The translations under genes and the position numbers were made by a program. This document shows, piece after piece, positions 7,938-64,000 of a stretch of 64,000 bases of DNA (position 1 is its first letter; each line of letters opens with the position of its first letter). Source of the DNA: Clostridiales bacterium (GTDB taxonomy: Bacteria; Bacillota; Clostridia; Oscillospirales; Oscillospiraceae); assembly GCA_029008095.1 (NCBI GenBank), contig JAQXJB010000006.1, positions 3,135 to 67,134 on the forward strand, read 5' to 3'. The notes beneath the pieces were generated by a model, which ran no database searches, was not told where the DNA came from, and saw nothing but the letters and a program-made list of their open reading frames with translations.

Positions 7938-7980
7938 AGTCCCTGCCGTGAAAATCTCACAGCAGGGACTTATCTTTTTT
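7938..7980. terminator. bidirectional terminator between convergent genes
   Basis: AGTCCCTGC - loop - GCAGGGACT, with a T-run on the + side and GTTTTCAT on the - side. Confidence 0.6.
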
Positions 7981-9886
7981 ACAGTCTCATTGCCGTATCA
8001 AAGGCAAGCTGTATGGTTTTCCAGAGAGTGCCGCCCCGGTAGGAGCTGTCTCCGACTATATAGCTTTCGCCAACGCAGCCGGCCAGCTTTTCGGCGGTTT
8101 CCCGGTCGGGACGCACGCCAAGGGAGAGCACCACATTGTCGCAGGGAATGGTACGCTTTCCGTCAGCGCCGGATATGACCGCGCCCTCATCATTCACATC
8201 TTCCAGCTTGACAGAGCATACGAACTTAACGTTCTCCTTAGCCAGAAGCTGCTTGAGGCATATCATGCTGATGGTGATGCCGTCAGTGCCTATCTTCTCC
8301 TCGGGCAGCATATCGATAACGGTGACCTCCCTGCCGCTCCGGGCAAGGGTGAGAGCCATTTCCAGACCGGTGAAGCCCGCGCCCGCTATGACCACACGCT
8401 GTCCCACCTCGGCCTTGCCCAGCTCAACATCGCCCACCCAGACGGTCTTGCCGCTCTTATCCGAGGGCATCGGGATGATGATGGGCTTCGCGCCCACGGC
8501 GACGATGAGCGCGTCGGGAGCCTCCGCCGCGATATTCTCGGGAGTGGCAGCGCAGTTCAGGCGCACTTCAATATTGGGGTCCTCCATAACGCTGCGGATG
8601 GACCAGTCCAGATAATTTCTCATATCCTTTTTGAACTCTGCGGCGCTCGCCATGATAAGCGCGCCGCCCAATCGCTCAGCCTTCTCCATGAGCACGACCC
8701 TATGGCCGCGGGAGGATGCTGTTCTGGCAGCTTCAAGGCCGCCGGGTCCGCCGCCAACCACCAGCAGCTTCTTGGGCTTCAGGCGGGGCGAGCGGTCAAT
8801 ATAGAGAGCCTCGCGTCCAATGAGAGGATTGACCGCGCAGCGTATGGGCAGACGGTTTGAATGGGTGCTGTGGATGCAGCTATTGCAGCGCACGCAGGGA
8901 CGGATGGTATCCGCTCTTCCCCGCCGGGCCTTTTCCACGCAATCGGTATCGGCAAGGATATTGCGCACCATTGCGACCATATCCGTCTGACCGGCGGCAA
9001 CAGCCGCCTCGGCATGCTCAAGGTCGAAGCCGCCTATCACGTTCACGGGGATGTGCAAAGCCTTTTTGAACTCAATGGCAGCATCCAGATTTATGGCGCG
9101 GGGCAGGTACGTTGGCGGGAACATGGGCGGCAGCAATTCATCCACCTCAAGAAGACTTCTGCTGATATGTATGAGATCTATCTTATCCTGAATGAGCTTG
9201 GCAAACTCGATGGTTTCCGGCATCTCCGCACCGCCCGGGAACAGTTCCTCGGCGCTGATACGGTATTCTATCGCCAGCTGATCGCCAACCCGGTCACGGA
9301 TAGCGTCCAGCAGTTCGATCGCAAAGCGGCTGCGGTTGTCAAAGGAGCCGCCGTACTTATCGGTGCGCTTGTTATGCAGGGGCGAAAAGAACATGGAGGG
9401 CACATTGCCGTGGCCGCCGTGTATCATTATCATGTCAAAGCCCGCCTTAACGCAGCGCTCCGCCGCGTCGGCAAAGAGGCGGAATATCTCCTCTATATCT
9501 TCCACGCTTGTTTCATTGACGACCTCATGGGGAGGCGAGAGCATATAGCGGCTATGGACAAGCTCGATGCTTGCCAGCGCATCCTTCAGATGTATCAGAT
9601 CCGTTATCTCGCTCAGATCATGTATAAAGCTATCGTGCCCCGCATTGAGTATACGGCTGCTCCCTCCGGGGCCGAAATAGTCCACGGAGCTGACTCCCAT
9701 AGTGATTATGCCCGCTCCGCTGTTTGCGAGCCCCTTGACATATTCCATGAATTGCACGGAGTTGCGGCTGCCCGGCGCGGTGAGAAAGCATCCGGCAGGC
9801 CCCATCTCGATGCGGTTTTTGCATAGCTTTGTGCCTATTTTAATAGGAGAAAATATCGCGCTGTGGTGGTCAAGCTTAACACTCAT
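7979..9886 (-). CDS. NADH:flavin oxidoreductase, enoate-reductase/2,4-dienoyl-CoA-reductase family (OYE domain + Fe-S + FAD/NAD domain)
   Basis: 635 aa. OYE-like N-terminus (IHGGHGNV), Cys motif CVRCNSC...CAVNP and dinucleotide fold VVGGGPGGLEAA. Confidence 0.85.
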   Translation of the reverse strand: MSVKLDHHSAIFSPIKIGTKLCKNRIEMGPAGCFLTAPGSRNSVQFMEYVKGLANSGAGIITMGVSSVDYFGPGGSSRILNAGHDSFIHDLSEITDLIHLKDALASIELVHSRYMLSPPHEVVNETSVEDIEEIFRLFADAAERCVKAGFDMIMIHGGHGNVPSMFFSPLHNKRTDKYGGSFDNRSRFAIELLDAIRDRVGDQLAIEYRISAEELFPGGAEMPETIEFAKLIQDKIDLIHISRSLLEVDELLPPMFPPTYLPRAINLDAAIEFKKALHIPVNVIGGFDLEHAEAAVAAGQTDMVAMVRNILADTDCVEKARRGRADTIRPCVRCNSCIHSTHSNRLPIRCAVNPLIGREALYIDRSPRLKPKKLLVVGGGPGGLEAARTASSRGHRVVLMEKAERLGGALIMASAAEFKKDMRNYLDWSIRSVMEDPNIEVRLNCAATPENIAAEAPDALIVAVGAKPIIIPMPSDKSGKTVWVGDVELGKAEVGQRVVIAGAGFTGLEMALTLARSGREVTVIDMLPEEKIGTDGITISMICLKQLLAKENVKFVCSVKLEDVNDEGAVISGADGKRTIPCDNVVLSLGVRPDRETAEKLAGCVGESYIVGDSSYRGGTLWKTIQLAFDTAMRL

Positions 9887-9890
9887 TTTA

Positions 9891-10024
9891 ATCCTCCATG
9901 CGGCAGCACCGCAAAATAGTTATTAAAAATCCCCACGCATGGAGGATTTTTGCCATCATCTGCGGTTGCCGCGAAACAGCGAGCAGATGGACTTTTCATG
10001 ATATAGTGTGATTTTTCACACTAT
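9891..10024 (-). repeat. structured intergenic repeat, copy A (5' leader of 7979-9886)
   Basis: Contains ATCCTCCATGCG...CGCATGGAGGAT, CATCTGC...GCAGATG and AGTGTGATTTTTCACACT. GGAGG lies 6 nt from the ATG at 9886. Confidence 0.85.
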
Positions 10025-10050
10025 TCATCCTTCCACTTATCTTCCTTAAG

Positions 10051-10075
10051 GCAGCGGAATACGACTTCCGCTGCT
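10051..10075 (-). terminator. hairpin directly after the 10076-10720 stop (weak terminator candidate)
   Basis: GCAGCGGAA - 6 nt - TTCCGCTGC with a poor U-tract on the minus strand. Confidence 0.3.
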
Positions 10076-10720
10076 TTAGTTTATATGACTCAAAGCCTCA
10101 CGAGCCTTAGCCAGCAGTTCCTCATGCTCCGCCACATATTCCAGATATACATCATCCAGGAACTCCTGCGAATAATCGGCATACTCCGGGGACTCTGCGT
10201 CAAGAGGCTTTACCGGGGAATCATTTGTCGTGCAATAAAGGCCGGGCATGGCGCTGACCGCCACGGCATCCGCAAAATATCCCAGTTCGGAAAAGATATG
10301 ATAATTTTCTTCGTCCAGAATATAGATCATGGTATTCTGGTCATTAAGATGGCTGTAAAGGAGGTTTTCACCATAGCTTTCCATCACGCCTCCGTCGCGG
10401 CTCAGTTCAACGACTTCCACATCCACACGACGGTTTTTACCGGTCTCGGGCAGCAGACTCTCCATCAGCTCCCGTATCTCCTCCGCCCTGGCACTGTCGG
10501 CAGCTCCGTTATGGGCATATACCACAGTCCAATCATAGCTGACAGACGTGACCAAACCTACGGCAGCCATTATCAGCAGCGACAGCAGAAAAACGCCAAT
10601 GATAAAATACCATTTATAGTGAAACCAGAAGGTATTGGTAAGCCAATTCTCTATTTTCTCCATTCTTCCGAGTTCATCATTGGAGTTGTTTACCGGGGAC
10701 ATATCTTTTTCGTTATCCAT
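10076..10720 (-). CDS. hypothetical single-pass membrane protein
   Basis: Start set at the internal ATG (MDNEKDMSP...) 6 nt after the GGAGG of repeat copy B. One TM segment (YFIIGVFLLSLLIMAAVGLV). No family recognised. Confidence 0.6.
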   Translation of the reverse strand: MDNEKDMSPVNNSNDELGRMEKIENWLTNTFWFHYKWYFIIGVFLLSLLIMAAVGLVTSVSYDWTVVYAHNGAADSARAEEIRELMESLLPETGKNRRVDVEVVELSRDGGVMESYGENLLYSHLNDQNTMIYILDEENYHIFSELGYFADAVAVSAMPGLYCTTNDSPVKPLDAESPEYADYSQEFLDDVYLEYVAEHEELLAKAREALSHIN

Positions 10721-10724
10721 ATTA

Positions 10725-10859
10725 ATCCTCCATGCGGCAGCACCGCACAAATAGTCATTATAAATCTTCCTCCGCATGGAGGATTTTCGCCATCATCGCC
10801 GGTTGCCCAACGGGCGAGGCGATGGGCTTTTTATAATATAGTGTGATTTTTCACACTAT
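10725..10859 (-). repeat. structured intergenic repeat, copy B
   Basis: Full unit. GGAGG lies 6 nt from the ATG at 10720. Confidence 0.85.
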
Positions 10860-33298: not shown

Positions 33299-33667
33299 AC
33301 TTCTTATCTCCGTGTGAGTTTTTGATTATTATGTGCGGTATTTCCAATTATACACGTATTTAAATAAAGTATAAAGCCTCCCTCCACCGCTGTCAACAGC
33401 AAGGGAAGGCAGTTATCTATTCCGGTCTCAAGCTTCCGGTCATAGCCCGGCAAATTCCACAACAACGTCTCTTGCATTTCATGCACATTTACTGGCACAT
33501 GACCTTGATTTTATGCTCTCAATAGTCTAAAATCATCTCGGGAAAGTGAATAAGCTATAGAGTATTGAGAGGCTGCAGCCCGCTTCGCCTCCCATAATGC
33601 TGTGCTTCTTTCGCTTTTCTATCAACCGTCCGATGGACAACTAAAAAAGAAAGAAAGGATATCCAAC

Positions 33668-34621
33668 ATGAAAAAACTCACATCACTGTTCCTCGCGCTC
33701 GTCCTTTGCATTGGTCTGACTGTTCCCGCCCTTGCAACCGGAGAGCAGTACAAAGAGCTCAAGATCAGCACTATGACAGACTCCATCATCACCTTTGAAG
33801 CGGCTTACAAGACAAACACCACTATAAATATTATCTATGGTGAGGAACCCCTTGAGCAGAACGTACAACTCATAGTTGTTAAGCCCGGCAGCAAGATTAC
33901 TGTAAAAACCATCGGCGGTGATGAGACTTTCTACGATGCTTTCGCTATTGTATATGAAGAAGAGTATGGCTGCTACTGCGATAGCGGAGCGGTCGTTGAG
34001 CTGTACAGCGGCACTGCAGAAGAAATCTTCTGCTTTGAATCGGATACTTTGCTTATGATGCCCGATTTCGAATATTTCATCAAGCTTGGTGAAGGGGCTG
34101 CCGCCGCACCCACCTTTACCGATGTAAAAGCCGACGAATACTATGCCGTTCCCGTGGCATGGGCCGTTAAAAAGAGTATAACTGACGGAACCTCCGACAC
34201 TACCTTCTCCCCCAACGTCACCTGTTCCAACGCTCAGATTCTGACCTTTATGTGGCGTGCCGCCGGTTCTCCTGAGTCCACCGCTGCCAACCCCTTTACC
34301 AACCTGACCGGCAGCGAATATTACGCCAAGGCCGCCGTGTGGGCATATGAGAACGGTATGGTCTCCGGCACCTCCTTTGACGCCGACAAGGACTGCACCC
34401 GCTCCATGACTGTGGAATATTTCTGGAAGCAGGCCGGAAGCCCCACAACAACCGTCTCCGACATGTTTACCGATGTAGCTGCCGGTTCTTCCTACGCTCA
34501 GGCTGTGGCATGGGCCGTTGAGAACGGTATAACCGATGGAACCTCCGACACCACCTTCTCTCCCGCCGACACCTGCACCCGTGGGCAAATCGTTACCTTC
34601 CTGTACCGCGCACTGGCGTGA
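33668..34621 (+). CDS. secreted protein with three C-terminal SLH-like repeats
   Basis: Start at the ATG at 33668 with a signal peptide (MKKLTSLFLALVLCIGLTVPALA). Three FTDV...YYA.AVAWAV..GIT.GTSDTTFSP repeats. Confidence 0.75.
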   Translation: MKKLTSLFLALVLCIGLTVPALATGEQYKELKISTMTDSIITFEAAYKTNTTINIIYGEEPLEQNVQLIVVKPGSKITVKTIGGDETFYDAFAIVYEEEYGCYCDSGAVVELYSGTAEEIFCFESDTLLMMPDFEYFIKLGEGAAAAPTFTDVKADEYYAVPVAWAVKKSITDGTSDTTFSPNVTCSNAQILTFMWRAAGSPESTAANPFTNLTGSEYYAKAAVWAYENGMVSGTSFDADKDCTRSMTVEYFWKQAGSPTTTVSDMFTDVAAGSSYAQAVAWAVENGITDGTSDTTFSPADTCTRGQIVTFLYRALA

Positions 34622-41706: not shown

Positions 41707-43257
41707 TCAGAATTCCATTTCCTTCAGATCGTCCGCGACCTCTACATTGAATGGCAGAAGGTCAAGTATCTGGGTTTGCAGGTCTATGCCGGGAGCCACC
41801 TCGGTAAGGACAAGTCCGTTTGGCCCAAGACGGAATACGCATCGCTCGGTAACATAAAGTATCTCCTGCTTATTGGCATATGCGTTCTTCACGCTGAAGC
41901 TGAAGCTGCCCACATTCTCTACGAATTTGCGTATCTGTCCCTCTTTGGTGATGGTGACGGTCTTGCCGTCAAAGCTGCCGTCAATGCCTTTACTGGTAAA
42001 GGTAAAGCAGAACACAACCTTCTTAGTGGTCTGGGAAATATTCGCGAAGCCGCCGATTCCGCTGAGCTTGCCCTTGGTATAGTGCCCGTTTACGTTGCCG
42101 TATCCATCCACCTCGAGTGCGCCGATAAAGCATAGGTCAAGGCCGCCGCCTTCATAGAAATCAAACTGCCGCGCCATATCCATCATGGAATCGGGACCGA
42201 TGGCTACGCCGAAGGCCTGTCCACCCAATGGCAGTCCGCCCGTATGGCCGGACTCAACGCTGAGGTGCACATCCTCCAGCATGTTGCGCTCAAGAACGGC
42301 AGCGGCGACCAGCTCAGGTATGCCGATACCGATATTCACGATCTGATCCTTCTCTATCTCATGAACCGCGCGAGCTGCAATAGCCTTATGGAGCTCGTTA
42401 CGCTTGGAGGTCGCGCCGATAACCTCGCTTATTTCTTCCTTGCAGGCCTTGAGGATGTTTCCCGTGGGAACATACTTGCCGCAAATATAGTCATAAAATC
42501 CATCCACATTGGTGAGTTGCTGCTGGTGCGGGCAGACGACCACCGCGTCCACAAGAGCCGCCGGCACATTCACAGTTCTGGGCGGCATATGGTTATTGAC
42601 TATGCGTGCCACCTGTACGATGACCTTGCCTCCGTTGCGGTGGGTCGCCTGTGCGACGCTGAGAGCGTCGATGGAGGCGCACTCATTTTCAAAGGTGATG
42701 TTTCCCCTCTCGTCGGCATAGCTCGCCTTAAGCAAGGCAATATCCACCCGTGGGATATCGTAAAGCAATCCCAGCTCACCTTTTTCCTCAGCAAGATGGA
42801 CAAGCTCCAGCTTGGAACGCTCATTGAGCTGATACTGATGACCAAGGCGGGGGTCTACAAAGAGGTTCAGACCTATCTTGGAAAACAGCGAGGATGCGCC
42901 GCAGGCCGATGCGCGTATCATATGGGACATGATTCCGCCCGGGAGGTTGTACCCTTCTATCTTATTATCCATTATGGCCTGGCAGGTGTTTGTCAAGCTG
43001 CCGAAGAAGCCGATAACAGCTCTATCCACCGCTCCCTCGCATATATAGCCTTCCACATCGCTGTTCTTCTTCCAATCGCTGAAGCTGAAGGAGCTGTAAA
43101 TCGAAAGGTTCTTCGGGTGTCCTGTTTTTCTAAAGCGGTAGGTTATACCCTTATTCAGGTCTACCGGGGAGGCGCAGGCGGCAAAAGCGTTGACCCATAT
43201 GGTGTCTCCGTCCTTTATAAGATCAATGGCTTCCTCGAGGGTGACAACTTTGCTCAT
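41707..43257 (-). CDS. family I acyl-CoA:carboxylate CoA-transferase (fused alpha/beta, YdiF/Pct-like)
   Basis: Start at the internal ATG (MSKVVTLEEAIDLIKDGDTIW...) 6 nt after the GGAGG of repeat copy D. Motifs VESGHTGG and SGIGGF. Confidence 0.85.
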   Translation of the reverse strand: MSKVVTLEEAIDLIKDGDTIWVNAFAACASPVDLNKGITYRFRKTGHPKNLSIYSSFSFSDWKKNSDVEGYICEGAVDRAVIGFFGSLTNTCQAIMDNKIEGYNLPGGIMSHMIRASACGASSLFSKIGLNLFVDPRLGHQYQLNERSKLELVHLAEEKGELGLLYDIPRVDIALLKASYADERGNITFENECASIDALSVAQATHRNGGKVIVQVARIVNNHMPPRTVNVPAALVDAVVVCPHQQQLTNVDGFYDYICGKYVPTGNILKACKEEISEVIGATSKRNELHKAIAARAVHEIEKDQIVNIGIGIPELVAAAVLERNMLEDVHLSVESGHTGGLPLGGQAFGVAIGPDSMMDMARQFDFYEGGGLDLCFIGALEVDGYGNVNGHYTKGKLSGIGGFANISQTTKKVVFCFTFTSKGIDGSFDGKTVTITKEGQIRKFVENVGSFSFSVKNAYANKQEILYVTERCVFRLGPNGLVLTEVAPGIDLQTQILDLLPFNVEVADDLKEMEF

Positions 43258-43261
43258 GTAA

Positions 43262-43389
43262 TTCCTCCATTCCGCCGCTGTAAGCGGCATAAATAGAAAT
43301 GAAACGCTCCCCCGGCGAAATGGGGGATTATTGCCATCATCTGCAGTCGCCCCGGAGCGGCGAGCGGATGGGCTTTTCATCATATATAG
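43262..43389 (-). repeat. structured intergenic repeat, divergent copy D
   Basis: Arms CCCCCATTTCGCC / GGCGGAATGGAGG and hairpin 2 CCCATCCGC...GCAGATGATGG. No hairpin 3. Confidence 0.7.
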
Positions 43390-44784: not shown

Positions 44785-45645
44785 TTATTTTACATCGCAA
44801 TTCAAGCTTTGGCAATAGCCTGTCTCAAGTTGGGAGATACTGTATCTCAGCAGGCAGACCTCCAGCTCCGTTTCAATACGATCCAGTGCGTCAAGCTTGG
44901 CCTGATCGGCCGCCGATGTCTTATAATAATACGGTGTCATAGAAAACAGACGCTTCACGTCCATGCCCTCCACCTTTATCCGTGTTCTGATATCCACCCG
45001 CTCGCTTAGTTCAAAGCCCTCCAGCTCCGTTTCAGGCTCACCGTTTTCGTAGGGTACATCATACACGGCAGCCTTCAGGCTCCATAGATGCTTCGGCAGC
45101 ACTACAGCGCGGATAAGACTTCCGCCCGGATTCAGCACCCGCCGAAACTCAGCAGTTTCAAGCGGAGAGAATAAATTCAGCAGCATATCGCAGCCTCCGT
45201 CCACCACGGGCAGATGCGCCGAGCTGGACACAGCATGCTCCGCACCGGGTAATCGCCTTGCCGCATAGCGCAGGGCGTCCTTTGAGATGTCTGAGCAAGC
45301 CACGGCTATATCCAATCCCCCGGCCTTGGCGCTACTGTAAAGAGCGGCGGTATACCAGCCCTCGCCGCAGCCCGCGTCCAGCACACGGCTGCCGTTTTGA
45401 AGGCAAGGCAGAGCCATCTCAAGCAGAGCATCACGAATGGGAGAGTAATGCCCCGCATCCAGAAAATCCCGCCGGGCCTCCACCATGAGCCGGTCGTCCC
45501 CGTGCCGCTTGGCCGAGGACTGATTGGACATCAGCAGATTCACATATCCGTACTTTGAAATATCGTAACAGTGTCCGTTGGGGCAGAAAAGACTCTTCTC
45601 CCTTTTCTCCAGCGCCCCCTTGCAAACAGGACAGCAAAATATCAT
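44785..45645 (-). CDS. rlmA: 23S rRNA (guanine-N1)-methyltransferase RlmA-family
   Basis: 286 aa. Zn-ribbon CPVCKGAL...CPNGHCYDISKYGYVNLL and SAM motif VLDAGCGEGWY. Confidence 0.8.
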   Translation of the reverse strand: MIFCCPVCKGALEKREKSLFCPNGHCYDISKYGYVNLLMSNQSSAKRHGDDRLMVEARRDFLDAGHYSPIRDALLEMALPCLQNGSRVLDAGCGEGWYTAALYSSAKAGGLDIAVACSDISKDALRYAARRLPGAEHAVSSSAHLPVVDGGCDMLLNLFSPLETAEFRRVLNPGGSLIRAVVLPKHLWSLKAAVYDVPYENGEPETELEGFELSERVDIRTRIKVEGMDVKRLFSMTPYYYKTSAADQAKLDALDRIETELEVCLLRYSISQLETGYCQSLNCDVK

Positions 45646-45876
45646 CTGATCACCCCTGTTAATCTCGCAGAATGTATCTTACCATATCTGAAAGAATGTG
45701 CAACCTATAATTTGAACAAAAAAAGCCTCTGGAAGGTGTCATTCATATATATTATTTTAAGAAAGCGCTTTTCTTTTCCATCTATTTGTGATACAATATT
45801 ATTACACAATTTTAATTTAAAAAGAATCCGCTTTGTTCAAAAATGTCAATTATTAACTGAAAAGGAGATATAACAC

Positions 45877-46980
45877 ATGGGCAGATATGACGATCTGGTA
45901 TTTAAGATCCCTAAGGAATTCCACAACTGGTACGGCTTCGCCTCTCCCCGCGGCTTCTTCCGCGGCACCACTATGATGGAGAAGGCAAAGGTCTACATGG
46001 ACTTCACCTCCGTTACCAAGCCCCTCCCTATGGAGGTTCCCCACACTCACCACTGTGCTGACGAGTATCTCGTTTTCACCGGCGCCGACATGAACAACTT
46101 CTTTGAGTTCGACGCCGAGGTCGACGTATGGATAGGAGAGGATCCCAACAACCTGGAGATGTACACCCTCACCCAGCCCACAATCATCCGTGTGCCCCCC
46201 AAGATGTACCACTGTCCCGTACACTTCCGTGTAATCAACAAGCCTATCGTTTTCTCCGCCGTTTATCTGGACGGCGACTGGTCAAAGATAAACCGCAATC
46301 TGGACGAGAATGGCCGCGAATTCTTCACCTATGACGGCGCGGGCGTTCGCCGCTGCGTGCGCGACACCAGCAAGGAGTGCATATACTGCGGAAGCTGCTT
46401 CTCCGAGGCAATGAAGGCCAGAGAGGATGCAAAGCCTGAAGAAAAGGCTGACGATACTCCCAATACCAACCTCCTCGCTCCCTACTATGAGATGGCTGAA
46501 AAGACCAAGGGTCAGCGTAAGTACGCAAAATATGTTTATGCCTATCAGCCCGAGGAGCACAGCGATGACCGCTTCCTCAGCCCTCGCGCCGGATTCCGTG
46601 GCGTAAGCGAGATGGAGGGTTCCCGCCTGTGCTACCTCTATAACATTGTGCAGAAGGCCTGCGTATTCGGCGATACTCACATGCACCACGCGGTTGAGGA
46701 ATACATATTCTTCACTGGCGCCGACATCACCAATTTCTTTGATTTTGACGCGGAGATAGAGATTCAGATCGGTGAAACTCCCGATGATATGGATACCTAT
46801 ACCATCACCGAGCCCACCGTGGTGCGCATTCCCGCCGGAATGTGGCATGGCCCCATCAACTTCAAGCGCATCGGTGCGCCCATCAACTTCGAGCCCTTCT
46901 ATCCCTCCGGAAACTACGGCAAGGTAATTTGCAAGGATGGCCAGTATATCTATGAAGGCACCGATCTCCCCAAGAAATAA
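45877..46980 (+). CDS. hypothetical bicupin protein with central Cys cluster
   Basis: 367 aa. Internal duplication (aa 55-127 and 266-339), each half with an HxHH...E motif. C-x7-C-x2-C-x2-C linker. Confidence 0.6.
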   Translation: MGRYDDLVFKIPKEFHNWYGFASPRGFFRGTTMMEKAKVYMDFTSVTKPLPMEVPHTHHCADEYLVFTGADMNNFFEFDAEVDVWIGEDPNNLEMYTLTQPTIIRVPPKMYHCPVHFRVINKPIVFSAVYLDGDWSKINRNLDENGREFFTYDGAGVRRCVRDTSKECIYCGSCFSEAMKAREDAKPEEKADDTPNTNLLAPYYEMAEKTKGQRKYAKYVYAYQPEEHSDDRFLSPRAGFRGVSEMEGSRLCYLYNIVQKACVFGDTHMHHAVEEYIFFTGADITNFFDFDAEIEIQIGETPDDMDTYTITEPTVVRIPAGMWHGPINFKRIGAPINFEPFYPSGNYGKVICKDGQYIYEGTDLPKK

Positions 46981-47020
46981 TAGCTGAAATACACAGCAGC
47001 CATGTGCCGCTAACGTAAGC

Positions 47021-47068
47021 AGGTGCAGGAAGCCTTGAATGATACGGCTTCCTGCACCTCGTTTATTT
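47021..47068 (+). terminator. intrinsic terminator after the bicupin gene
   Basis: AGGTGCAGGAAGCC - loop - GGCTTCCTGCACCT followed by CGTTTATTT. Confidence 0.7.
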
Positions 47069-47083
47069 ACATTGAGTGAAAAT

Positions 47084-47133
47084 ATCCGCTTTCTGAGTCC
47101 ACCTTTTTGCCGGCGGACTTTCAGAAAGCGGAT
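47084..47133 (-). terminator. terminator at the end of the hem/cbi operon
   Basis: ATCCGCTTTCTGAGTCC...GGACTTTCAGAAAGCGGAT followed on the minus strand by ATTTTC. Confidence 0.6.
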
Positions 47134-47140
47134 CGTATTA

Positions 47141-48403
47141 TCAGAATATTTCCCGTGCGGCACGAATGATCTGTTCCACTTCCCCATCGGTATGGGCGGC
47201 GGAAAGGAACATGGCCTCGAACTGACTGGGCGCGGCGTAAACACCCCGCTGAAGCAGGCCGCGATACCAAACCGCAAAGCGCGCCAAATCCGAAGATTTG
47301 GCCTGCTCGTAGCCTGTGACAGGCTGCGCTGTGAAGAACACTGTGAGAAGAGAGCCGACACGATTTACCTGCGCCGGAATACCTGACAGAGCCTCTTTCA
47401 GTCCCTCCTGCAGCATTGCGCCTCTTCTCTCCAGTTCCGAATAAATCTCGGGGGAGCTCTGAAGGATACGCAGTTGGGCAAGGCCGGCTGCCATAGCCAC
47501 GGGATTACCGGACAGCGTTCCGGCCTGATACACCGGTCCAAGAGGAGCTACCAGCTCCATCAGCTTTCTGCTGCCGCCATAAGCGCCCACCGGCATGCCG
47601 CCGCCAATTATCTTGCCGTAGGTGGCCAGATCCGCACGGACGCCGTAATACTCCTGCGCACCGCCGGGAGCAAGACGGAAGCCGGTGATGACCTCGTCAA
47701 ATATCAGCAGGCTGCCATGCTCGTCACACAGGCTGCGCAGTCCTTCCAGGAAGCCAGGCTGCGGCGGTACCACGCCCATATTGGCAGCCACCGGCTCTAC
47801 TATAATGGCAGCTATCTGGCCGGGGTTGGCCTGAAGCAGACGGCGCACACTGTCAAGGTCATTGTAATCCGCCGTCAGCGTATCGCCAGCCATCTCTGCC
47901 GGAACTCCGGCAGAGTCCGGCGCGCCGCCGGTCAGCGCGCCCGAACCGGCCTTGACCAGCATGGAGTCGGAGTGTCCATGATAGCAGCCGGCAAATTTGA
48001 TGATTTTGCTGCGTCCGGTCGCGCCTCTCGCAAGGCGCAGCGCGGACATGACCGCCTCTGTACCGGAATTGACCATGCGAACCATTTCCATCCCGGTCAT
48101 AGAGCAGACCAGCTCCGCCATCTCCACCTCTATGGCCGTAGGAGCGCCAAAGCTGAGTCCCTTCTTTATAGCAGTCTGAACCGCCTGCTCCACCGCCTCA
48201 TTGCAGTGTCCCAAAATCAGAGGCCCCCAGGAGCAGATCAGGTCTATGTACTCCGCGCCATCCACGTCCCAGACGCGGCTGCCGCAGCCCTTTTCCAGAA
48301 AACGCGGGTATGTTCCCACAGCGCGGCAAGCCCGCACAGGGGAGTTGACGCCGCCGGGCAGCACCTTTTGAGCTGCGCCAAACAGTTCTTCGGAGCGTGT
48401 CAT
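47141..48403 (-). CDS. hemL: glutamate-1-semialdehyde 2,1-aminomutase
   Basis: Start at the ATG forming an ATGA overlap with the hemB stop. Motif LPGGVNSPVRA. Confidence 0.92.
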   Translation of the reverse strand: MTRSEELFGAAQKVLPGGVNSPVRACRAVGTYPRFLEKGCGSRVWDVDGAEYIDLICSWGPLILGHCNEAVEQAVQTAIKKGLSFGAPTAIEVEMAELVCSMTGMEMVRMVNSGTEAVMSALRLARGATGRSKIIKFAGCYHGHSDSMLVKAGSGALTGGAPDSAGVPAEMAGDTLTADYNDLDSVRRLLQANPGQIAAIIVEPVAANMGVVPPQPGFLEGLRSLCDEHGSLLIFDEVITGFRLAPGGAQEYYGVRADLATYGKIIGGGMPVGAYGGSRKLMELVAPLGPVYQAGTLSGNPVAMAAGLAQLRILQSSPEIYSELERRGAMLQEGLKEALSGIPAQVNRVGSLLTVFFTAQPVTGYEQAKSSDLARFAVWYRGLLQRGVYAAPSQFEAMFLSAAHTDGEVEQIIRAAREIF

Positions 48404-58795: not shown

Positions 58796-60168
58796 TTTTC
58801 TACTCCTTCTCCGTCTTTTTCTTTGAAGAGCATGGCTTTTTCCAGAAAACGTCCGGCCGCCTCCGGTTTGGAGGCAAAGTGGAAGTGGGGAAACCCGGCG
58901 TACAGGCTTTCCGTGGCAATACCGGCCTTCCAGTGCCGCGCCGACTGCGGCTTTCTGGCGGTAAAGCTCTGTCCCGGCTCCGTGCTGTCCCAATAATGAA
59001 ACTCATGAGCCGGCATCGTATCGCCTGCGTGAAACAGGAGACTGTCCGTTTCCGCAGTCAGCGTCACATACCCAAAGCGGCTGAGCTTTCCCGTGGGGAA
59101 CGCATCCGCATCCAGAACTCCGACCATTGGCCAGGGCATTCCGTCACCATCCCGCAGAGTCTTATGCAGGTACATGAAGCCGCCGCATTCGGCAATGGTG
59201 GGAAGTCCTTCGGATACCGCTCTGTAAATGGAGCAGCGCATAGCTTCGTTCTCCGCAAGCTGTCGGGCATATAGCTCCGGGTAGCCTCCTCCCAGATAGA
59301 GTCCATGCACGTTCTCCGGCAGCGCGCTGTCGGTCAGAGGAGAAAAATCCACAAGCTCCGCTCCCATATCCCTCAGGATTTGAAGCGAAGCCTCATAATA
59401 AAAGCAAAAGGCCTTATCCCGAGCAACGGCGATCCTCACCTTTTTCGCTTCAGACACCTTTGTAGGGAGCTTAGTCTCCAGCTCAGGCGCCTGCTGAGCC
59501 AGAGCCAGCAGGCCGTCCAGATCCAATGTCTTTTCCGCCTGCTCCGCCAGCCTGTCCAGCTTCTGCTGCAGATCGGATATTTCCGCAGCCGTCACCAGCC
59601 CCAGATGGCGGCTCTCAATGGAACAGTCCTCCATCACCGGCAGATAGCCCATCACCGGCAGGCCGGTTTCCCGGGAAATGGTCTCAGCCAAACGGGGATA
59701 CAGCATCGGGGACACACGGTTCAAAATAACACCGGCTATCCGGCTGGGCTGCCGGAAGCTTTGAAAGCCCTGAACCTCGGCTGCCGCGGAAATGGCTCTG
59801 CCCCTGCCGTCCACAACCAGCACTGCCGGAGTTTCCGTTGCCTCCGCAAGGGCGTAGGCAGAAGCATCCACGCTCATGGCAATGCCGTCGTAATAGCCCA
59901 TAGCGCCTTCCAGAATCGTCACATCCGCCTGACGGGAACATTCCTCAAGCAGATTTCTGGTCGTGGCGCGGGAAAAAAAGAACATATCCAGATTGCAGCT
60001 CCGGGTACCCAGAACCTGGCTGTGGAACATGGGGTCGATATAATCCGGCCCGGATTTGCAGGCCATCGGCATCAGTCCGCGCCTGAGCAGCGCGCGCAGC
60101 ACCGCGCAGGTCACCGTGGTCTTACCGCTGCCGGAGGCTGGGGCGCAGAACATGAGACGCGGCGTCAT
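58792..60168 (-). CDS. cbiA: cobyrinate a,c-diamide synthase
   Basis: Start at the ATG forming an ATGA overlap with the cbiET stop. Motifs ASGSGKTTVT and ECGGFMYL. Confidence 0.9.
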   Translation of the reverse strand: MTPRLMFCAPASGSGKTTVTCAVLRALLRRGLMPMACKSGPDYIDPMFHSQVLGTRSCNLDMFFFSRATTRNLLEECSRQADVTILEGAMGYYDGIAMSVDASAYALAEATETPAVLVVDGRGRAISAAAEVQGFQSFRQPSRIAGVILNRVSPMLYPRLAETISRETGLPVMGYLPVMEDCSIESRHLGLVTAAEISDLQQKLDRLAEQAEKTLDLDGLLALAQQAPELETKLPTKVSEAKKVRIAVARDKAFCFYYEASLQILRDMGAELVDFSPLTDSALPENVHGLYLGGGYPELYARQLAENEAMRCSIYRAVSEGLPTIAECGGFMYLHKTLRDGDGMPWPMVGVLDADAFPTGKLSRFGYVTLTAETDSLLFHAGDTMPAHEFHYWDSTEPGQSFTARKPQSARHWKAGIATESLYAGFPHFHFASKPEAAGRFLEKAMLFKEKDGEGVEK

Positions 60169-61367
60169 TGCCTTCCCTCCCCGGATATGATCCATACGGG
60201 ATTCTGCCCCATCATCATGTGGTACTGACCCAGAGTCTTTGCCTGTGCCGCCGATATCTGCGTCACGTCAACATTCGCCAGTTCAAACTGCTTCATGCAG
60301 TTCAGGGCATCGGTGAGGCTCTCCAAGCTGACCGCCGTAACGCATATCCGCGCCGCGGGATTCTTCTCAAGAACCACTTTGAATATCCCTGCCATTGAGC
60401 CGGAGGAGCCGCCTATGAACACGCAGTCCGGACGGGGCAGCTCATCCAGCGTTTCCGGCGCTTTGCCCTCTATCACCCGCAGATTCCACAGCCCAAGCGC
60501 TTCCCGGTTCTGACGTATCAGCTCCAGCGCCTCCGTTTCCTTCTCCACCGCCCATACCTGACCCTGCCAGGCCGCCATAGCGCAGGCGGCGGACACAGAG
60601 CCGGTACCGGCGCCAACGTCCCAAACCACACTGTCCGGCTTTACTTCCAGCCGGGCAACCGCCAGCAGGCGGATATTTTCCTTGGTCATAGGCGTCTTGC
60701 CCCGGATAAGCTGGTCATCCCAAAGGCAGGGCGCTCCCTGTTTCCAGCCGGTGGGTGCGGGATTTACTGCCAGAACCACTGACAAATCGTCAAATTTCTC
60801 ACCGGCCAGCTCCGCCGCCGTGCCAGAAACAATGCTCTCGTCAGGATATGACAGACGCTGACCCACGTGAATCTGCACCTGTCCCAGGCCGGCATCGGTT
60901 AGCTGGGCGCACAGCTCCGCCGCCGTGCAGTTGCTTCCGGTCAGCAGAAAGGTCTTGCCGTGGGATTGTATCTCGCCCACGGCGTTGGCTGTACGGCCAT
61001 GAACGGAAACCAGCCGCGCATCCTGCCAACTGGTATGAAGCCGGGCACAGAAATAGTTAAGGGAGGATATACCGGGGATGGTTTCCACCCGCAGACCATC
61101 CAGCATGTCATAGAGCCGGAAAGCTCCGCTGTAAAAGCCGGGGTCGCCGGAAAGCAGCACGGCGCTGTCGCCTTCATAGGCTTTTACAGCCTCCGCGATA
61201 TCCTCCGCACGGATCAGCGCAAGCTTACGCCCCGGATGCTCCGGAAATGCGTCCAGCATTCTCCGGGCGCCGATCAGCAGCCCGCATTCCCCAATACGCC
61301 GGGCAGCGCCCTGGGTCAGGGTGTCCGGGTTTCCCATGCCTATGCCAATGAGATAACAGGTTTTCAT
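60165..61367 (-). CDS. cobalt-precorrin-6B/7 methyltransferase CbiE-CbiT fusion
   Basis: Start at the ATG 6 nt after the GGAGG of repeat copy E (MKTCYLIGIGMGNPDTLT). C-terminal DVGAGTGSVS. Confidence 0.88.
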   Translation of the reverse strand: MKTCYLIGIGMGNPDTLTQGAARRIGECGLLIGARRMLDAFPEHPGRKLALIRAEDIAEAVKAYEGDSAVLLSGDPGFYSGAFRLYDMLDGLRVETIPGISSLNYFCARLHTSWQDARLVSVHGRTANAVGEIQSHGKTFLLTGSNCTAAELCAQLTDAGLGQVQIHVGQRLSYPDESIVSGTAAELAGEKFDDLSVVLAVNPAPTGWKQGAPCLWDDQLIRGKTPMTKENIRLLAVARLEVKPDSVVWDVGAGTGSVSAACAMAAWQGQVWAVEKETEALELIRQNREALGLWNLRVIEGKAPETLDELPRPDCVFIGGSSGSMAGIFKVVLEKNPAARICVTAVSLESLTDALNCMKQFELANVDVTQISAAQAKTLGQYHMMMGQNPVWIISGEGRQ

Positions 61368-61371
61368 TATA

Positions 61372-61504
61372 ATCCTCCATGCGGCAACACCGCACAAATA
61401 ATCTTTAAGAATCTCCCCCGCATGGAGGATTTTTGCCATCATCGCCGCTTACCCGAAGGGGCGAGGCGATGGGCTTTAAATAATATAGTGTGATTTTCAC
61501 ACGA
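61372..61504 (-). repeat. structured intergenic repeat, copy E (entire cbiJ-cbiET spacer)
   Basis: Full unit. The cbiJ TGA stop (61497-61499) lies within the GTGTGA arm of hairpin 3. Confidence 0.85.
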
Positions 61505-62243
61505 TATCCTCGGTGAGTTTTTTCAAAAGTGCTTCAAGCTCCAGACCCGTTTCCGTGGTGGGACGCCGAATTACCAGCAGCTTAGCGCCAACTGCCTGCG
61601 CCGCCTCCGCTTTTTCTCCGAAGCCTCCGGCACGTCCCGTGTCCTTTGTTACGAGAACGGCGCCGTCAATATCCTGAAGCGTCGCTATGTTCATCTGCTT
61701 TGAAAAGGGTCCCTGCATACATATAATGTGAGACGCAGGGTATCCCAACTCAAGAGCGCAGCTCAGGCTCTCCAGACTCGGCAGGACACGAACCCATATC
61801 CGCTTCTGGAAATCCGGTACTGAGGCAAAAACCGCAAGATCCTTGCTCCCGGTAGTCAGCAGAACATTGCCCGGCATATCCGCCAGCAGCTCCGCAGCCT
61901 CAGCCGAACTTTCCGCCGTTATCACATTTTCAGCGGCTTCGCTCGGTCTCAGCAGACGCTCATAGTGAAGTCCGGCGGTTTGCGCCGCTGCCCGAATATT
62001 CTCACTGACCAGAGCGGCATAGGGATGGGTGGCGTCCACCACGCAGTCATAGCCGCGGTCCATCTCCCGGATCATGGCATCCTTATCCATGCGCCCCGTG
62101 AGTACCGTGAGGCCACTTTGAGGTTCCAGCAGATCGCGTCCGTACTCCGTGGCAACACAGCAGGTCACTGAATGTCCCGCCTCTGCCAGCCGGCACGCCA
62201 GGGCATGTCCCTCCGTCGTGCCGCCGAACAAAAGCACCTTCAT
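61497..62243 (-). CDS. cbiJ: cobalt-precorrin-6A reductase
   Basis: 248 aa, MKVLLFGGTTEG... Confidence 0.85.
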   Translation of the reverse strand: MKVLLFGGTTEGHALACRLAEAGHSVTCCVATEYGRDLLEPQSGLTVLTGRMDKDAMIREMDRGYDCVVDATHPYAALVSENIRAAAQTAGLHYERLLRPSEAAENVITAESSAEAAELLADMPGNVLLTTGSKDLAVFASVPDFQKRIWVRVLPSLESLSCALELGYPASHIICMQGPFSKQMNIATLQDIDGAVLVTKDTGRAGGFGEKAEAAQAVGAKLLVIRRPTTETGLELEALLKKLTEDIV

Positions 62244-62971
62244 CGCTGCAGATACCCCCTGGGCGTAACCATATGGCCGCCGATCACCTGAGTCTGGGAG
62301 TTTCCGACAAACACGGTTGTAAACATATCGACCTGAGCCTCACGAAGTTCTTTCAGGCTCAGAATGGTGTAGCTCTCTCCCTCACGGCCTATCTGGCTTA
62401 CATAGCCGCAGATCGTCTGAGGGTCTTTCGTTTCCAGCAGGATATCGCAGGCCTTTTGCAGGTAATCCTTTCTCTTGTGGCTGGAGGGGTTATAGAGACA
62501 GAGGACAAAGTCCGCCTGAGCCGCTGCCCGAAGCCGAGCCTCTATCTTTTCCCATGGCGTCATCAGATCCGAAAGGGAAACAAGACAAAAATCGTGCATC
62601 AGCGGTGCGCCCAGCACGGAAGCGCCGCCGCAGGCCGCCGTGATGCCGGGGATAACCTCAAGCTCAACCTGGGGCCATTGGGTGGACAATTCATAGCACA
62701 GCCCCGCCATACCGTATACGCCGGGGTCGCCGGAGCAGACCATAGCCACGGTCTTGCCGGAGTCCGCCATTTCAAGCGCCATCTGGCAGCGCTCGGTCTC
62801 TTTTCTCATGGGTGTGGAAAGCAGCTCTTTATGGGAATAGGCCTGTCTGATAAGGTCTATGTATACGGTGTATCCGACGATCACGTCGGAAGCCTCCAGC
62901 GCCTCCGCCGCACGGCCGGTCAAGTCACGCCCACCGCCGGGGCCAAGTCCAATGATATACAGTTTCTTCAT
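62240..62971 (-). CDS. cbiH: cobalt-precorrin-3B C17-methyltransferase
   Basis: Start at the ATG 6 nt after the GGAGG of repeat copy F (MKKLYIIGLGPGG). Motif VCSGDPGVYGMA. Confidence 0.9.
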   Translation of the reverse strand: MKKLYIIGLGPGGGRDLTGRAAEALEASDVIVGYTVYIDLIRQAYSHKELLSTPMRKETERCQMALEMADSGKTVAMVCSGDPGVYGMAGLCYELSTQWPQVELEVIPGITAACGGASVLGAPLMHDFCLVSLSDLMTPWEKIEARLRAAAQADFVLCLYNPSSHKRKDYLQKACDILLETKDPQTICGYVSQIGREGESYTILSLKELREAQVDMFTTVFVGNSQTQVIGGHMVTPRGYLQR

Positions 62972-62975
62972 AAAA

Positions 62976-63110
62976 ATCCTCCATGCGGCAGAACCGCACC
63001 AAATATTCATTAAAAATCCCCCTGCATGGAGGATTTTTGCCATCATCGCCGGTTGCCCGAAGGGCGAGGCGATGGGCTTTTTAATAATATTGTGTGATTT
63101 TTCACACTAT
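62976..63110 (-). repeat. structured intergenic repeat, copy F
   Basis: Full unit between cbiG and cbiH. Confidence 0.85.
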
Positions 63111-63156
63111 CCTCCATGCGGCAGAACCGCACCAAATAGTTATCGAAAATCTCCCC
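63111..63156 (-). repeat. structured intergenic repeat, partial copy G (first 46 nt only)
   Basis: CCTCCATGCGGCAGAACCGCACCAAATAGTTATCGAAAATCTCCCC. Overlaps the last codons and stop of cbiG. Confidence 0.75.
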
Positions 63157-64000
63157 AATTCAGTTCCACCTGCCCCATAGCCGCGGCAAATGTCGCGCCC
63201 TGACAGACGGTCTTGGGGATAATGATATGTCCGCCTGCCCGCTGGGCGGCTCTCTGGCACACATTGTCTACGCCGGTGGTTCGCTCCACAAAGGGAGACG
63301 CCGGAAAATCTCCGGTTTCCGAAGCCAGCTCCCCGGCGGTAAAAAACGTGATAGGCCAGCCGTGGGCGTTCGCCAAAGCCAGCAGCCCCGGCTCATCCTG
63401 CTTAAGGTCAACGGAAGCAAGTCCGCGTACGGCCTTCTCCGGAATGGCATGTCCACTCAGGAACTCCTTCAGCGCAGCCTCCAGCCTCGCCTGCTCGGTT
63501 CCGCGCCGGCATCCGATACCCAGCGTAATCGCTCCCGGCACCAGATGCAGCGTCTGCGGGCAAAAGCTTTCCGCCGCGGTGGGGCCGATGCATATTCCTA
63601 TCTCGGCAGCCTCCGAGCAAAGTCCGGCAGGCATCTTTCCCGCAATGGGATACGCGGAGCGAACCGCCACCGGCCTGCCTTCCAGCAGCGCCGCCGATAC
63701 GGCTTTGGCCTGAGCCCGCTCGCACAGCACCAGTCCCTGCTCCTTTGCCCACTGGTCTACGGCAAACATGCCGTTTACGTCCGTGGCCGTGGATACCACC
63801 GCCCGTCCGCCGGTGAGCGCCGCGACACGGCGCGCCAGATCGTTGGCTCCGCCCACATGCCCTGAGAGCAGAGGAACGGCAAACTCTCCCGCCTCATCCA
63901 CGGAGATGACAGCGGGATCGGTAAATTTATCCTTCACAAAGGGAGCAATCGAACGAACGGCAATTCCCGAAGCGGAAATAAACACCAGCGCCCGGCTGTC
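63140..64000 (-). CDS. cbiG: cobalt-precorrin-5A hydrolase CbiG (5' end beyond the window)
   Basis: The frame stays open to position 64000 (...DSRALVFISASGIAVRSIAPFVKDKFTDPAV). Motif LLSGHVGGANDLAR. Confidence 0.85.
   Translation of the reverse strand, partial: DSRALVFISASGIAVRSIAPFVKDKFTDPAVISVDEAGEFAVPLLSGHVGGANDLARRVAALTGGRAVVSTATDVNGMFAVDQWAKEQGLVLCERAQAKAVSAALLEGRPVAVRSAYPIAGKMPAGLCSEAAEIGICIGPTAAESFCPQTLHLVPGAITLGIGCRRGTEQARLEAALKEFLSGHAIPEKAVRGLASVDLKQDEPGLLALANAHGWPITFFTAGELASETGDFPASPFVERTTGVDNVCQRAAQRAGGHIIIPKTVCQGATFAAAMGQVELNWGDFR

Follow-up and report, generated by a model that had tools for sequence, protein, structure and literature searches.

What brings a small, highly structured repeat, always in the orientation of the gene, to rest directly before the start codons of genes that have nothing to do with one another? 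The question is raised by a 64,000-nt stretch of contig JAQXJB010000006.1 (positions 3,135-67,134; assembly GCA_029008095.1) of a Clostridiales bacterium (Oscillospirales; Oscillospiraceae), referred to here as the window, which carries seven units, copies A to G, of an element of ~135 nt, all on the minus (gene) strand and in one orientation. By comparison with orthologous loci, each copy is shown to be an insertion between the Shine-Dalgarno sequence (SD) and the ATG of a host gene. We consider it probable that the family is a non-autonomous mobile insertion element of Oscillospirales that enters the SD-ATG spacer in the orientation of the gene.

The insertions are most directly seen against orthologous loci obtained via their flanking proteins; loci other than the window (L numbers below) span 1-21 kb each, ~330 kb having been fetched in all. 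Empty sites are found for three window loci in relatives at 73-92% protein identity. In L034, L036, L037 and L038 (CbiJ 73-81% identical), cbiJ and cbiET overlap by the four nucleotides ATGA, with a GGAGG inside cbiJ; the empty junction of L038 reads TTCACCGGAGGGAAACTATGAGCACTTGTTATCTC, while that of the window reads CTCACCGAGGATAT[133 nt]ATAATGAAAACCTGTTATCTC, the 133 nt of copy D sitting between GAGGATAT and ATAATG. Excising copy D on paper, with no duplication assumed, yields ACC GAG GAT ATA TAA TG, an ordinary TAATG stop/start overlap. The CbiG/CbiH junction, 9-18 nt long in four relatives (L034-L037), holds copies E and F in the window, and the MatE/CoA-transferase spacer, 23-25 nt long in L043 and L044 (CoA-transferase 92% and 88% identical), holds copy G. 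The D junction is identical in an independent sequencing run (L042), so the insertion is not an assembly artefact. The ATG and N-terminal codons behind the copies are orthologous to those of element-free relatives, in which the cbiH-cbiJ gene order is likewise unchanged.

The 5' edge of the element records what was there before. Nearly every copy is directly preceded by an SD-like purine run, for example ccGGAGGAT before TAGTGTGA, and elsewhere AAGGAGGTCAT, AAGGAGAT or GAGGTGAAAT; an SD core lies within the 14 nt 5' of 20 of 26 independent insertions, compared with 12% of random 14-mers (p ~2e-14). This run is shown to be a fossil of the host gene's original SD. Its distance to the element varies from 0 to 7 nt, and the distance from the element to the ATG is tighter. 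Two truncated copies are explained by secondary deletions, one in copy G that also took the host SD, and one in copy F between the host SD and the decoy SD described below. The initial annotation had taken the units for a dispersed transcribed repeat or portable translation leader, a description that our results support as far as it goes; the insertion itself went unseen, and the empty sites make the family primarily a mobile element. Also overlooked were the old host SD 5' of each copy, the stop codons at the element's 5' end and a hairpin between its anti-SD and decoy.

Repeat finding, alignment, blastn and a covariance model alike recover the seven units as first listed, with F at 63109-63156 and G at 43258-43389. 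For copies A-E, first called near-identical, the term is too strong, as they are mutually 84-91% identical; G is ~60-76% identical to the others. The hairpin-3 18-mer occurs 4 times in the window against 0.02 expected by chance, and GCATGGAGGAT occurs 14 times against 1.8. On the gene strand the predicted fold of every window copy comprises hairpins 3 and 2 and a long helix that encloses a small hairpin (z-scores -2.5 to -6.9), the three-part fold proposed in the initial annotation, and the GGAGG it had placed exactly 6 nt from the ATG of five gene-proximal copies is found there in A, B, D, E and G. The features are as follows, element boundaries being uncertain by 1-2 nt.

9891-10024, minus strand: copy A, full length; the gene behind it is OYE/enoate-reductase-like (7979-9886, ATG 9886-9884)
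9893-9897, minus strand: new SD of copy A, GGAGG, 6 nt from the ATG
9899-9913, minus strand: small hairpin of copy A
9925-9934, minus strand: decoy SD of copy A
9937-9951, minus strand: anti-SD arm of copy A
9952-9992, minus strand: hairpin 2 of copy A
10003-10024, minus strand: hairpin 3 of copy A
10028-10034, minus strand: fossil host SD GGAAGGA, directly 5' of copy A on the gene strand
10725-10859, minus strand: copy B, full length, gene-proximal tandem member, before the gene for a 214-aa protein (10076-10720, ATG 10720-10718)
10727-10731, minus strand: SD of copy B, 6 nt from the ATG; 3' arm at 10725-10738
10733-10747, minus strand: small hairpin of copy B
10760-10773, minus strand: decoy of copy B
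10772-10788, minus strand: anti-SD arm of copy B
10789-10827, minus strand: hairpin 2 of copy B
10828-10837, minus strand: AU-rich linker of copy B
10838-10859, minus strand: hairpin 3 of copy B
10860-10990, minus strand: copy C, distal, older member of the B/C tandem, with a degenerate hairpin 3 (TGATTGA...TCACACTA)
10991-10996, minus strand: fossil host SD GAGGAA, 5' of copy C
11029-11057, minus strand: promoter-like site TTGACG-17-TAGAAT with TG extension, a consensus match only, upstream of C and B
43258-43389, minus strand: copy G, divergent, without its first ~17 nt (the hairpin-3 5' arm), before the CoA-transferase gene 41707-43257
61372-61504, minus strand: copy D, in the CbiJ/CbiET junction, SD 6 nt from the CbiET ATG (61367)
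61507-61511, minus strand: fossil host SD GAGGA, within the 3' end of cbiJ, orthologous to the GGAGG of the relatives' empty sites
62976-63110, minus strand: copy E, gene-proximal tandem member, in the CbiG/CbiH junction, SD 6 nt from the CbiH ATG (62971)
63109-63156, minus strand: copy F, 5'-truncated older copy, decoy SD to 3' end only

Both ends of the element bear on the reading frames around it. The 5' end, TAGTGTGA, closes two frames, with TAG at nucleotides 1-3 in 26 of 33 copies and TGA at nucleotides 6-8 in 31 of 33, and in ~15 copies an upstream open reading frame (ORF) enters the element and stops within its first 11 nt; an upstream gene that formerly overlapped the junction thus still terminates. 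CbiJ (61497-62243) now stops at the hairpin-3 TGA of copy D (61499-61497) and CbiG (63140-63985) at a TAA inside copy F. The 3' end, GCATGGAGGAT(T), supplies the replacement SD, and across the family 31 of 35 copies have a start codon at a distance of 4-11 nt (mode 6) beyond GGAGG, which opens an ORF that exceeds 100 aa or is cut by a contig end. Terminal inverted repeats are absent, the 5' end TAGTGTGAAAAATCAC and the reverse complement of the 3' end AATCCTCCATGCGGC having no similarity, as are target-site duplications: the 5' flanks are variable host SDs (GAGGTGAAAT, AAGGAGAT, GGAAGGATGAAT), and the 3' GCATGGAGGAT(T) is invariant and owned by the element.

Tandem arrays show the same preference for the gene-proximal side. 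In B/C, in E/F and in a remnant at L004 the gene-proximal copy is intact and the distal copy degenerate or truncated, which argues that new insertions enter whichever SD-ATG spacer is in use at the time, even one that an earlier copy has brought; the resident copy's 3' end is itself a target, and the entry site of copy B is the 3' GGAGGAT of copy C. The promoter-like site at 11057-11029 would place both B and C in the 5' untranslated region of gene 10076-10720, while no sense-strand promoter is predicted inside any window copy. About half of the copies lie in tight intercistronic junctions. At L007, two copies 5 kb apart have opposite orientations, L007b lying directly before a gene on its own strand, and at L021:5943 a 3'-truncated copy with hairpins 3 and 2 only lies between convergent genes.

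A covariance model trained on 21 copies and searched against ~210 kb (the window and loci) finds 35 copies at E<1e-4, divergent subfamilies included. In an alignment of 35 copies, 23 of 37 pairs show changes on both sides, and 95.7% of cells are paired; sliding the partners lowers this to 30-47%, and in no case out of 500 shuffles are the observed values equalled. The compensatory change in hairpin 2 of copy A, read in the initial annotation as a sign of selection on structure, is thus real and one of many, with both sides changed in 7 of 8 pairs of hairpin 3, 9 of 10 of the hairpin-2 outer stem, all 4 of its inner stem and 3 of 6 of the small hairpin. RNAalifold independently predicts the same four helices. 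The stems of hairpin 2 are wholly different between subfamilies, yet its AU bulge and UC/AACC internal loop are retained, a pattern that looks like that of a protein-recognition hairpin. Hairpin 3, at the 5' edge, has a conserved GUGA...UCAC at its top; the small hairpin lies 9 nt from the 3' edge, and the linker is always AU-rich though variable in sequence. At L019:6738-6752 the linker carries an insertion of ~10 nt (ATCACACCAATGTGAT) that creates a second small hairpin by reusing hairpin-3 arm sequence.

Two sequences can pair with the anti-SD arm, AAAAUCCUC(C): the real SD, in the long helix, and a decoy, GAGGAUUUU, that lies directly 3' of the arm. The proximal helix between anti-SD and decoy is 86% paired, compared with at most 66% when slid, and shows double changes in L007b (AAAGAUCCUC/GAGGAUCUUU), L009 (GAAAAUCCUC/GAGGAUUUUC) and copy G (CCCCC/GGGGG). 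Transcripts truncated before the 3' arm fold into this hairpin in nearly all copies (-6 to -15 kcal/mol), and in full leaders the SD-free and SD-blocked folds are 0-8 kcal/mol apart in most copies. The 11-13 bp helix first suggested to sequester the SD is therefore an incomplete account, its anti-SD arm having this second conserved partner, with which pairing is predicted to form first on the growing transcript. Copy G, found independently of the pattern used for collection, retains the long helix through other sequence (CCAUUUCGCCG/CGGCGGAAUGG), with CCCCC opposite GGAGG. Essential-type genes (fmt, lgt, dut) lie behind copies, which argues that the SD is not permanently blocked. That the SD is switchable rather than simply sequestered is suggested by these folds, and we would put it at close to an even chance, leaning slightly against.

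Beyond the window, a pattern scan that fixes both long-helix arms exactly, with one genome per species, yields ~17 true copies in Oscillospirales metagenome-assembled genomes (MAGs), and a separate metagenome scan gives 12 further loci. One uncultured Oscillospiraceae MAG, CAYYLZ01, accounts for 11 contigs with copies; the other carriers are RGIG6375, Candidatus Limivicinus, a Butyricicoccaceae bacterium and UMGS887. The covariance model finds no copy in 68 kb of DNA from close relatives, and the nearest neighbours of window copies are other window copies, which together point to amplification within lineages. The genes behind the copies, described from the outset as functionally unrelated, are as diverse across the family (fmt, lgt, dut, rdgB, both transketolase subunits, ABC and MFS transporters, RlmL and others) as they are in the window (OYE/enoate-reductase-like, 214-aa protein, CoA-transferase, CbiET, CbiH), and no functional or regulon theme is found among these unrelated housekeeping genes.

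Several observations concern how such copies assemble. The end of the L019 contig and the start of the L015 contig (1-42) fall in one copy, and L042 ends within copy D; breaks inside the element are consistent with a high-copy repeat. In one metagenome, L029:1199-1384 and L030:1295-1480 have an identical 45-nt 5' flank and a near-identical element 5' half, while their 3' halves and downstream genes differ (HAD hydrolase and fmt), as if copies had recombined or the assembly were chimeric at the repeat.

Copies that have stayed in place are conserved. Between the orthologous loci L006 and L017 the element is identical at 132 of 140 positions (94%), all 8 differences falling in loops or linkers, whereas the downstream gene is 67% identical at third codon positions and ~95% at first and second positions. 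Between L002 and L032 the element is 89% identical (97% in its 3' half), with third positions at 57% and first and second positions at 90-96%. Each pair has locus-specific variants in common, such as a GAGCAGC-UAU-GCUGC small hairpin, and their retention makes homogenisation by other copies unlikely. These two pairs argue that a leader, once inserted, is of consequence to the host gene, its SD module most of all.

As the loci show, this copy-and-insert element takes up, in one orientation, the short spacer between a gene's SD and its start codon, caps the upstream frame with stops and replaces the SD by one at the canonical distance. Within the transcript, its anti-SD AAAAUCCUCC would pair first with the adjacent decoy GAGGAUUUU, leaving the real SD free and the gene translatable, and refolding to the more stable long helix between anti-SD and SD would block initiation and give an off state, so that a bistable leader would set or tune translation of the gene behind the insertion. 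This sequence of events, with the anti-SD held by the decoy before it refolds onto the SD to tune translation, is a model to which we give nearly, though not quite, equal weight for and against. Hairpins 2 and 3 are putative recognition sites of a mobilising enzyme, a weaker inference that draws on their likeness to IS200/IS605- or REP-type single-strand substrates, and might additionally or alternatively serve as structures that protect or process RNA ends. A part for the internal anti-SD in matching the element with SD-like targets is also possible, given that the 5' flank and the element's own 3' end are the same kind of sequence.

A number of points weigh against this account. Mobility is inferred from the pattern of empty and filled sites, and neither a transposase, integrase or recombinase nor a longer master element is found in the window, nor are solo ends or longer relatives found in the ~330 kb of fetched loci. 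Selection for working SD spacing could shape the distribution of distances as much as target choice does. Two copies precede no gene: L014 lies after a gene and before a terminator, and L007a is an orphan upstream of a promoter. As to the switch, the minimum-energy fold is the SD-blocking one in most copies, and the invariance of the long helix among collected copies is biased by a collection pattern that fixed both of its arms. Purifying selection is read from two orthologous pairs, and hairpin 3 has decayed in L032 and in copy C. Finally, the hairpins could matter as single-stranded DNA and not as RNA: the strand test that contrasts G.U with A.C pairs gives 36 against 19 in the four helices and 13 against 17 in the proximal helix, with a combined p=0.15.

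The last of these points brings in the best-placed alternative, that the family is purely selfish DNA. The hairpins would then be single-stranded recognition structures for a trans-acting HUH/Y1 transposase (IS200/IS605- or RAYT-like) or another site-specific recombinase, the triplet of anti-SD, decoy and SD would serve target matching and cleavage, and the 3' SD would merely make the insertion tolerable, with no regulatory role for the RNA. The strand test, which does not favour RNA overall, and the decay of hairpin 3 agree with this, as do the lack of inverted termini and target duplication, the strict orientation, the tandems, a 3' end that equals the target and an imperfect hairpin 2 whose bulge and internal loop outlast its stems. 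A further sign is the flipped hairpin-3 loop at L024:233-253 (TAGTGTGATTTTTCACACTA in place of ...AAAAA...), the signature of a DNA-level palindrome inversion or template switch. What such DNA would not lead one to expect is that orthologous copies are conserved far above synonymous sites and differ only in loops, or that the decoy helix shows compensatory changes and keeps U.G pairs at CCUCC:GGGGG in 7 copies. Nor is a conserved target word of 4-5 nt evident before the element; the geometry differs from that of IS608, in that here nothing lies between the 5' flank and hairpin 3, and a cognate transposase is not seen in the window or the fetched loci. We regard an exclusively selfish element as unlikely, although it is the rival we take most seriously.

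A bolder extension of the insertion model holds that the element homes to ribosome-binding sites by base pairing, with the anti-SD, a mimic of the 16S rRNA 3' end, as its built-in guide, which would direct cleavage by pairing with the element's 3' GGAGGAT and integration by pairing with the SD of whatever gene it meets. We think this rather unlikely, but if true it would be the first mobile element to target the SD itself, and one that leaves behind a bistable switch then kept under host selection.

Less probable again is a regulon leader, in which something common to all tagged genes and acting in trans, be it a ligand, temperature, a small RNA or a protein that binds RNA (CsrA at the two GGA sites, for instance), would bind the conserved hairpins, flip the SD switch and so co-regulate those genes, spread being secondary. 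Such a leader would be in keeping with the strong covariation, the bistable energetics and the purifying selection on copies at fixed loci, as well as with the conservation of motifs that are not paired (the AU bulge, ACUAUUUGUGC and the UC/AACC loop), and Neisseria REP2/CREN, which mark a co-regulated gene set (PMC3184786), offer a precedent. The downstream genes, however, have no functional theme, the ground on which a metabolite riboswitch or regulon is rejected; presence is polymorphic between close relatives, with no copy in their 68 kb, tandem and truncated copies exist, and Rfam gives no match. A regulon leader is in our judgement quite improbable.

Most doubtful of the explanations with something in their favour is an operon insulator or processing module, which would chiefly make neighbouring cistrons independent of each other in stability and translation: hairpin 3 would protect the 3' end of the upstream cistron, the AU-rich linker would be an endonuclease site, and hairpin 2 would act as 5' stabiliser of the downstream cistron and as an intrinsic terminator, on the opposite strand, against antisense transcription. 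The frequent intercistronic positions and the constant AU-richness of the linker fit, and on the plus strand a T-run (GGCGATGGGCTTTTT) follows hairpin 2 while the gene strand reads AAAAAUCC, so that sense transcription would not be stopped; yet the T-run is only 3-7 long and not strictly kept, a terminator scan does not call hairpin 2, and the anti-SD/decoy/SD triplet is left unexplained. We hold it very improbable.

Other candidates are set aside more briefly. A CRP- or Rex-type operator in hairpin 3 is rejected on its TGTGA/TCACA half-sites, which are 3-4 nt apart and not 6, and on its outer positions, which covary rather than being conserved. A sense-strand terminator (the proximal hairpin with its U-run, or hairpin 3, both with weak terminator-like flags) is unlikely given short stems and operon genes downstream. 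The 5'-truncated copies F and G might suggest a retro-element, but deletions explain both, L021:5943 is 3'-truncated, and the reading finds no support. A phage or plasmid origin is dismissed, as a pattern scan of IMG/VR gives 0 matches and blastn finds none in PLSDB or INPHARED.

The insertion-element reading can be placed among known systems, where the initial annotation had recognised no described riboswitch, REP or MITE (miniature inverted-repeat transposable element), a judgement with which we concur. Rfam yields 0 window matches at gathering score, and at a permissive threshold only noise (E>1) in 9800-11100. With MITEs and MITE-like repeats (Correia/NEMIS, ERIC, RUP, BOX, Chunjie) the family has in common that it is small, multi-copy, non-coding, highly structured and polymorphic between empty and filled sites, and such repeats, as here, are co-transcribed with their neighbours and sometimes lie inside operons. 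A classical MITE is nevertheless rejected, since both defining features, terminal inverted repeats and target-site duplications, are missing; MITEs, moreover, are bound neither to one orientation nor to the SD-ATG spacer.

REP/BIME/REPIN-RAYT sequences and the IS200/IS605-derived PATEs come closer in form, with imperfect hairpins, conserved extrahelical bases, no inverted termini or target duplication, one orientation and tandems. REPs, however, are tagged by GTAG or CGTC and mostly found 3' of genes, whereas hairpin 3 is mostly preceded by ATAG or TTAG and by GTAG in only 2 of 33 copies (L014, L024); REP/BIME is rejected on this missing tag before the palindrome, and no RAYT (Y1 transposase) gene is present in the 64-kb window. 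The general hallmarks of a PATE are all found, namely subterminal hairpins, no terminal inverted repeats or target-site duplications and an orientation that follows the neighbouring gene in all 35 copies. Of an autonomous TnpA/TnpB element that would share its ends, neither solo ends nor a longer form appear in the ~330 kb of fetched sequence. Insertions of IS200/IS605 elements lie 3' of a fixed word of 4-5 nt; no such conserved word is evident here, where the last three bases of the 5' flank vary (GAA, GAT, AAT, TGA and others), with an SD-like sequence 0-7 nt away in the 20 of 26 insertions noted above. At the left end of IS200, a terminator hairpin precedes a stem that covers the ribosome-binding site of tnpA, and our element likewise has an upstream hairpin and then a helix that sequesters the next ORF's SD; the IS200 ORF is its own transposase, whereas our element is non-coding and stands before ORFs of the host. 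An integron attC site is rejected because neither end has a GTTRRRY/RYYYAAC core and the flanked cbiH-cbiJ order is the same in relatives without the element.

MIRUs, according to what Supply et al. 1997 are said to have reported, are intercistronic, oriented with the operon, tandem and overlap flanking stop and start codons with their ends; unlike this family, they are minisatellite-like units of 46-101 bp without hairpin architecture or an SD/anti-SD switch. Mutually exclusive anti-SD pairings that decide access to the SD are found in translational riboswitches, RNA thermometers and attenuators. The element differs from these in having no ligand-binding core and no Rfam family, in being dispersed in many copies before unrelated genes and in an "anti-anti-SD" that is a copy of the SD itself.

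The nearest described kind, compared by description and from a different phylum, appears to be the REP2/CREN repeats of Neisseria, which, with similar inverted-repeat sequences of Borrelia plasmids, are 120-150 bp long, occur in tens of copies without terminal inverted repeats, form stem-loops from internal inverted repeats, carry a ribosome-binding site and lie directly upstream of unrelated ORFs, in the gene's orientation and as part of the 5' untranslated region (Delihas 2011, PMC3184786). Our family matches them in lacking terminal inverted repeats, in its internal stem-loops and own ribosome-binding site, in its position directly upstream of ORFs and in a means of mobility that is unexplained in both. 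According to its description, however, REP2 also brings a promoter and the downstream ORF's ATG (PMC3184786), whereas in our family prediction places no promoter within the element, and it is the host that owns the ATG and N-terminus. Our family adds the demonstrated insertion point between the old SD and the ATG, the 5' stops, the anti-SD/decoy/SD triplet and the frequent operon-internal positions. Full-text literature searches return no description of a repeat that targets the SD spacer, REP2/CREN being nearest.

Some further features of the window touch the copies or their neighbours. Mechanical ORF calling places the starts of the genes behind copies B, D, E and G 19-42 codons further upstream, inside the element (10721-10777, 61368-61442, 62972-63046 and 43258-43383), because in-frame ATGs in hairpin 2 or the anti-SD arm have no later stop. 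As candidates for a conserved leader peptide these ATGs are rejected: they are in frame in B, D and E, but frame and start vary between copies, with no SD before them. The A/B/C cluster is flanked by paralogous genes for OYE and pyridine-nucleotide-disulphide oxidoreductase (enoate-reductase-like) proteins, at 7979-9886 and 11617-13569 on the minus strand, and the region between the two paralogues also holds ORFs of 214 and 148 aa. Between the stop of gene 10076-10720 and copy A lies a 14-bp hairpin (10046-10079) with a T-run only on the plus strand, antisense to the genes, a "reverse terminator" orientation that is also that of the element's hairpin 2. At 11129-11156 on the plus strand, a perfect 12/12 match to a sigma-70-type promoter (TTGACA-16-TATAAT with TG) points away from the B/C tandem and is divergent from the minus-strand promoter-like site at 11057-11029.

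Copies D, E and F fall in a long cobalamin-biosynthesis cluster at 44785-64000. No cobalamin riboswitch or other Rfam family reaches threshold across the 64 kb, and the leader of the cobalamin operon may lie outside the window. The very junctions that hold D and E are occupied in related genomes by different, unrelated GC-rich insertions of ~130-150 nt, at L035:3284-3417 (CbiJ/CbiET) and at L039:1623-1772 and L040:151-300 (CbiG/CbiH), which share CTTCTCGCGCC and a repeated AATGGA(C); more than one family of repeats seems to have landed, time and again, at the junctions of operons in this clade. Elsewhere, a 146-nt direct repeat of 71% identity (34115-34260 and 34466-34611, plus strand) within an S-layer-homology-domain protein (33602-34621) is most likely a pair of repeated protein domains unrelated to the element family, and the contig of the window encodes Spo0A.

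Small interspersed repeats are usually seen as landing in "safe" intergenic DNA, whereas this family takes the most sensitive bases of a gene, the spacer between SD and ATG, and survives in that position by virtue of its stop-codon cap and of the SD that it brings as a replacement. It would thus be a transposable "translation-initiation cassette" that rewrites the leaders of unrelated genes, essential ones included, and would break translational coupling inside operons such as cbi. For the annotation of MAGs of gut Clostridia, the element is a source of contig breaks, wrong start codons and altered C-termini. If pairing between anti-SD and SD chooses the target, this would be a new targeting principle with engineering uses, and the family offers a clean evolutionary system in which to follow how a selfish insertion becomes constrained host sequence.

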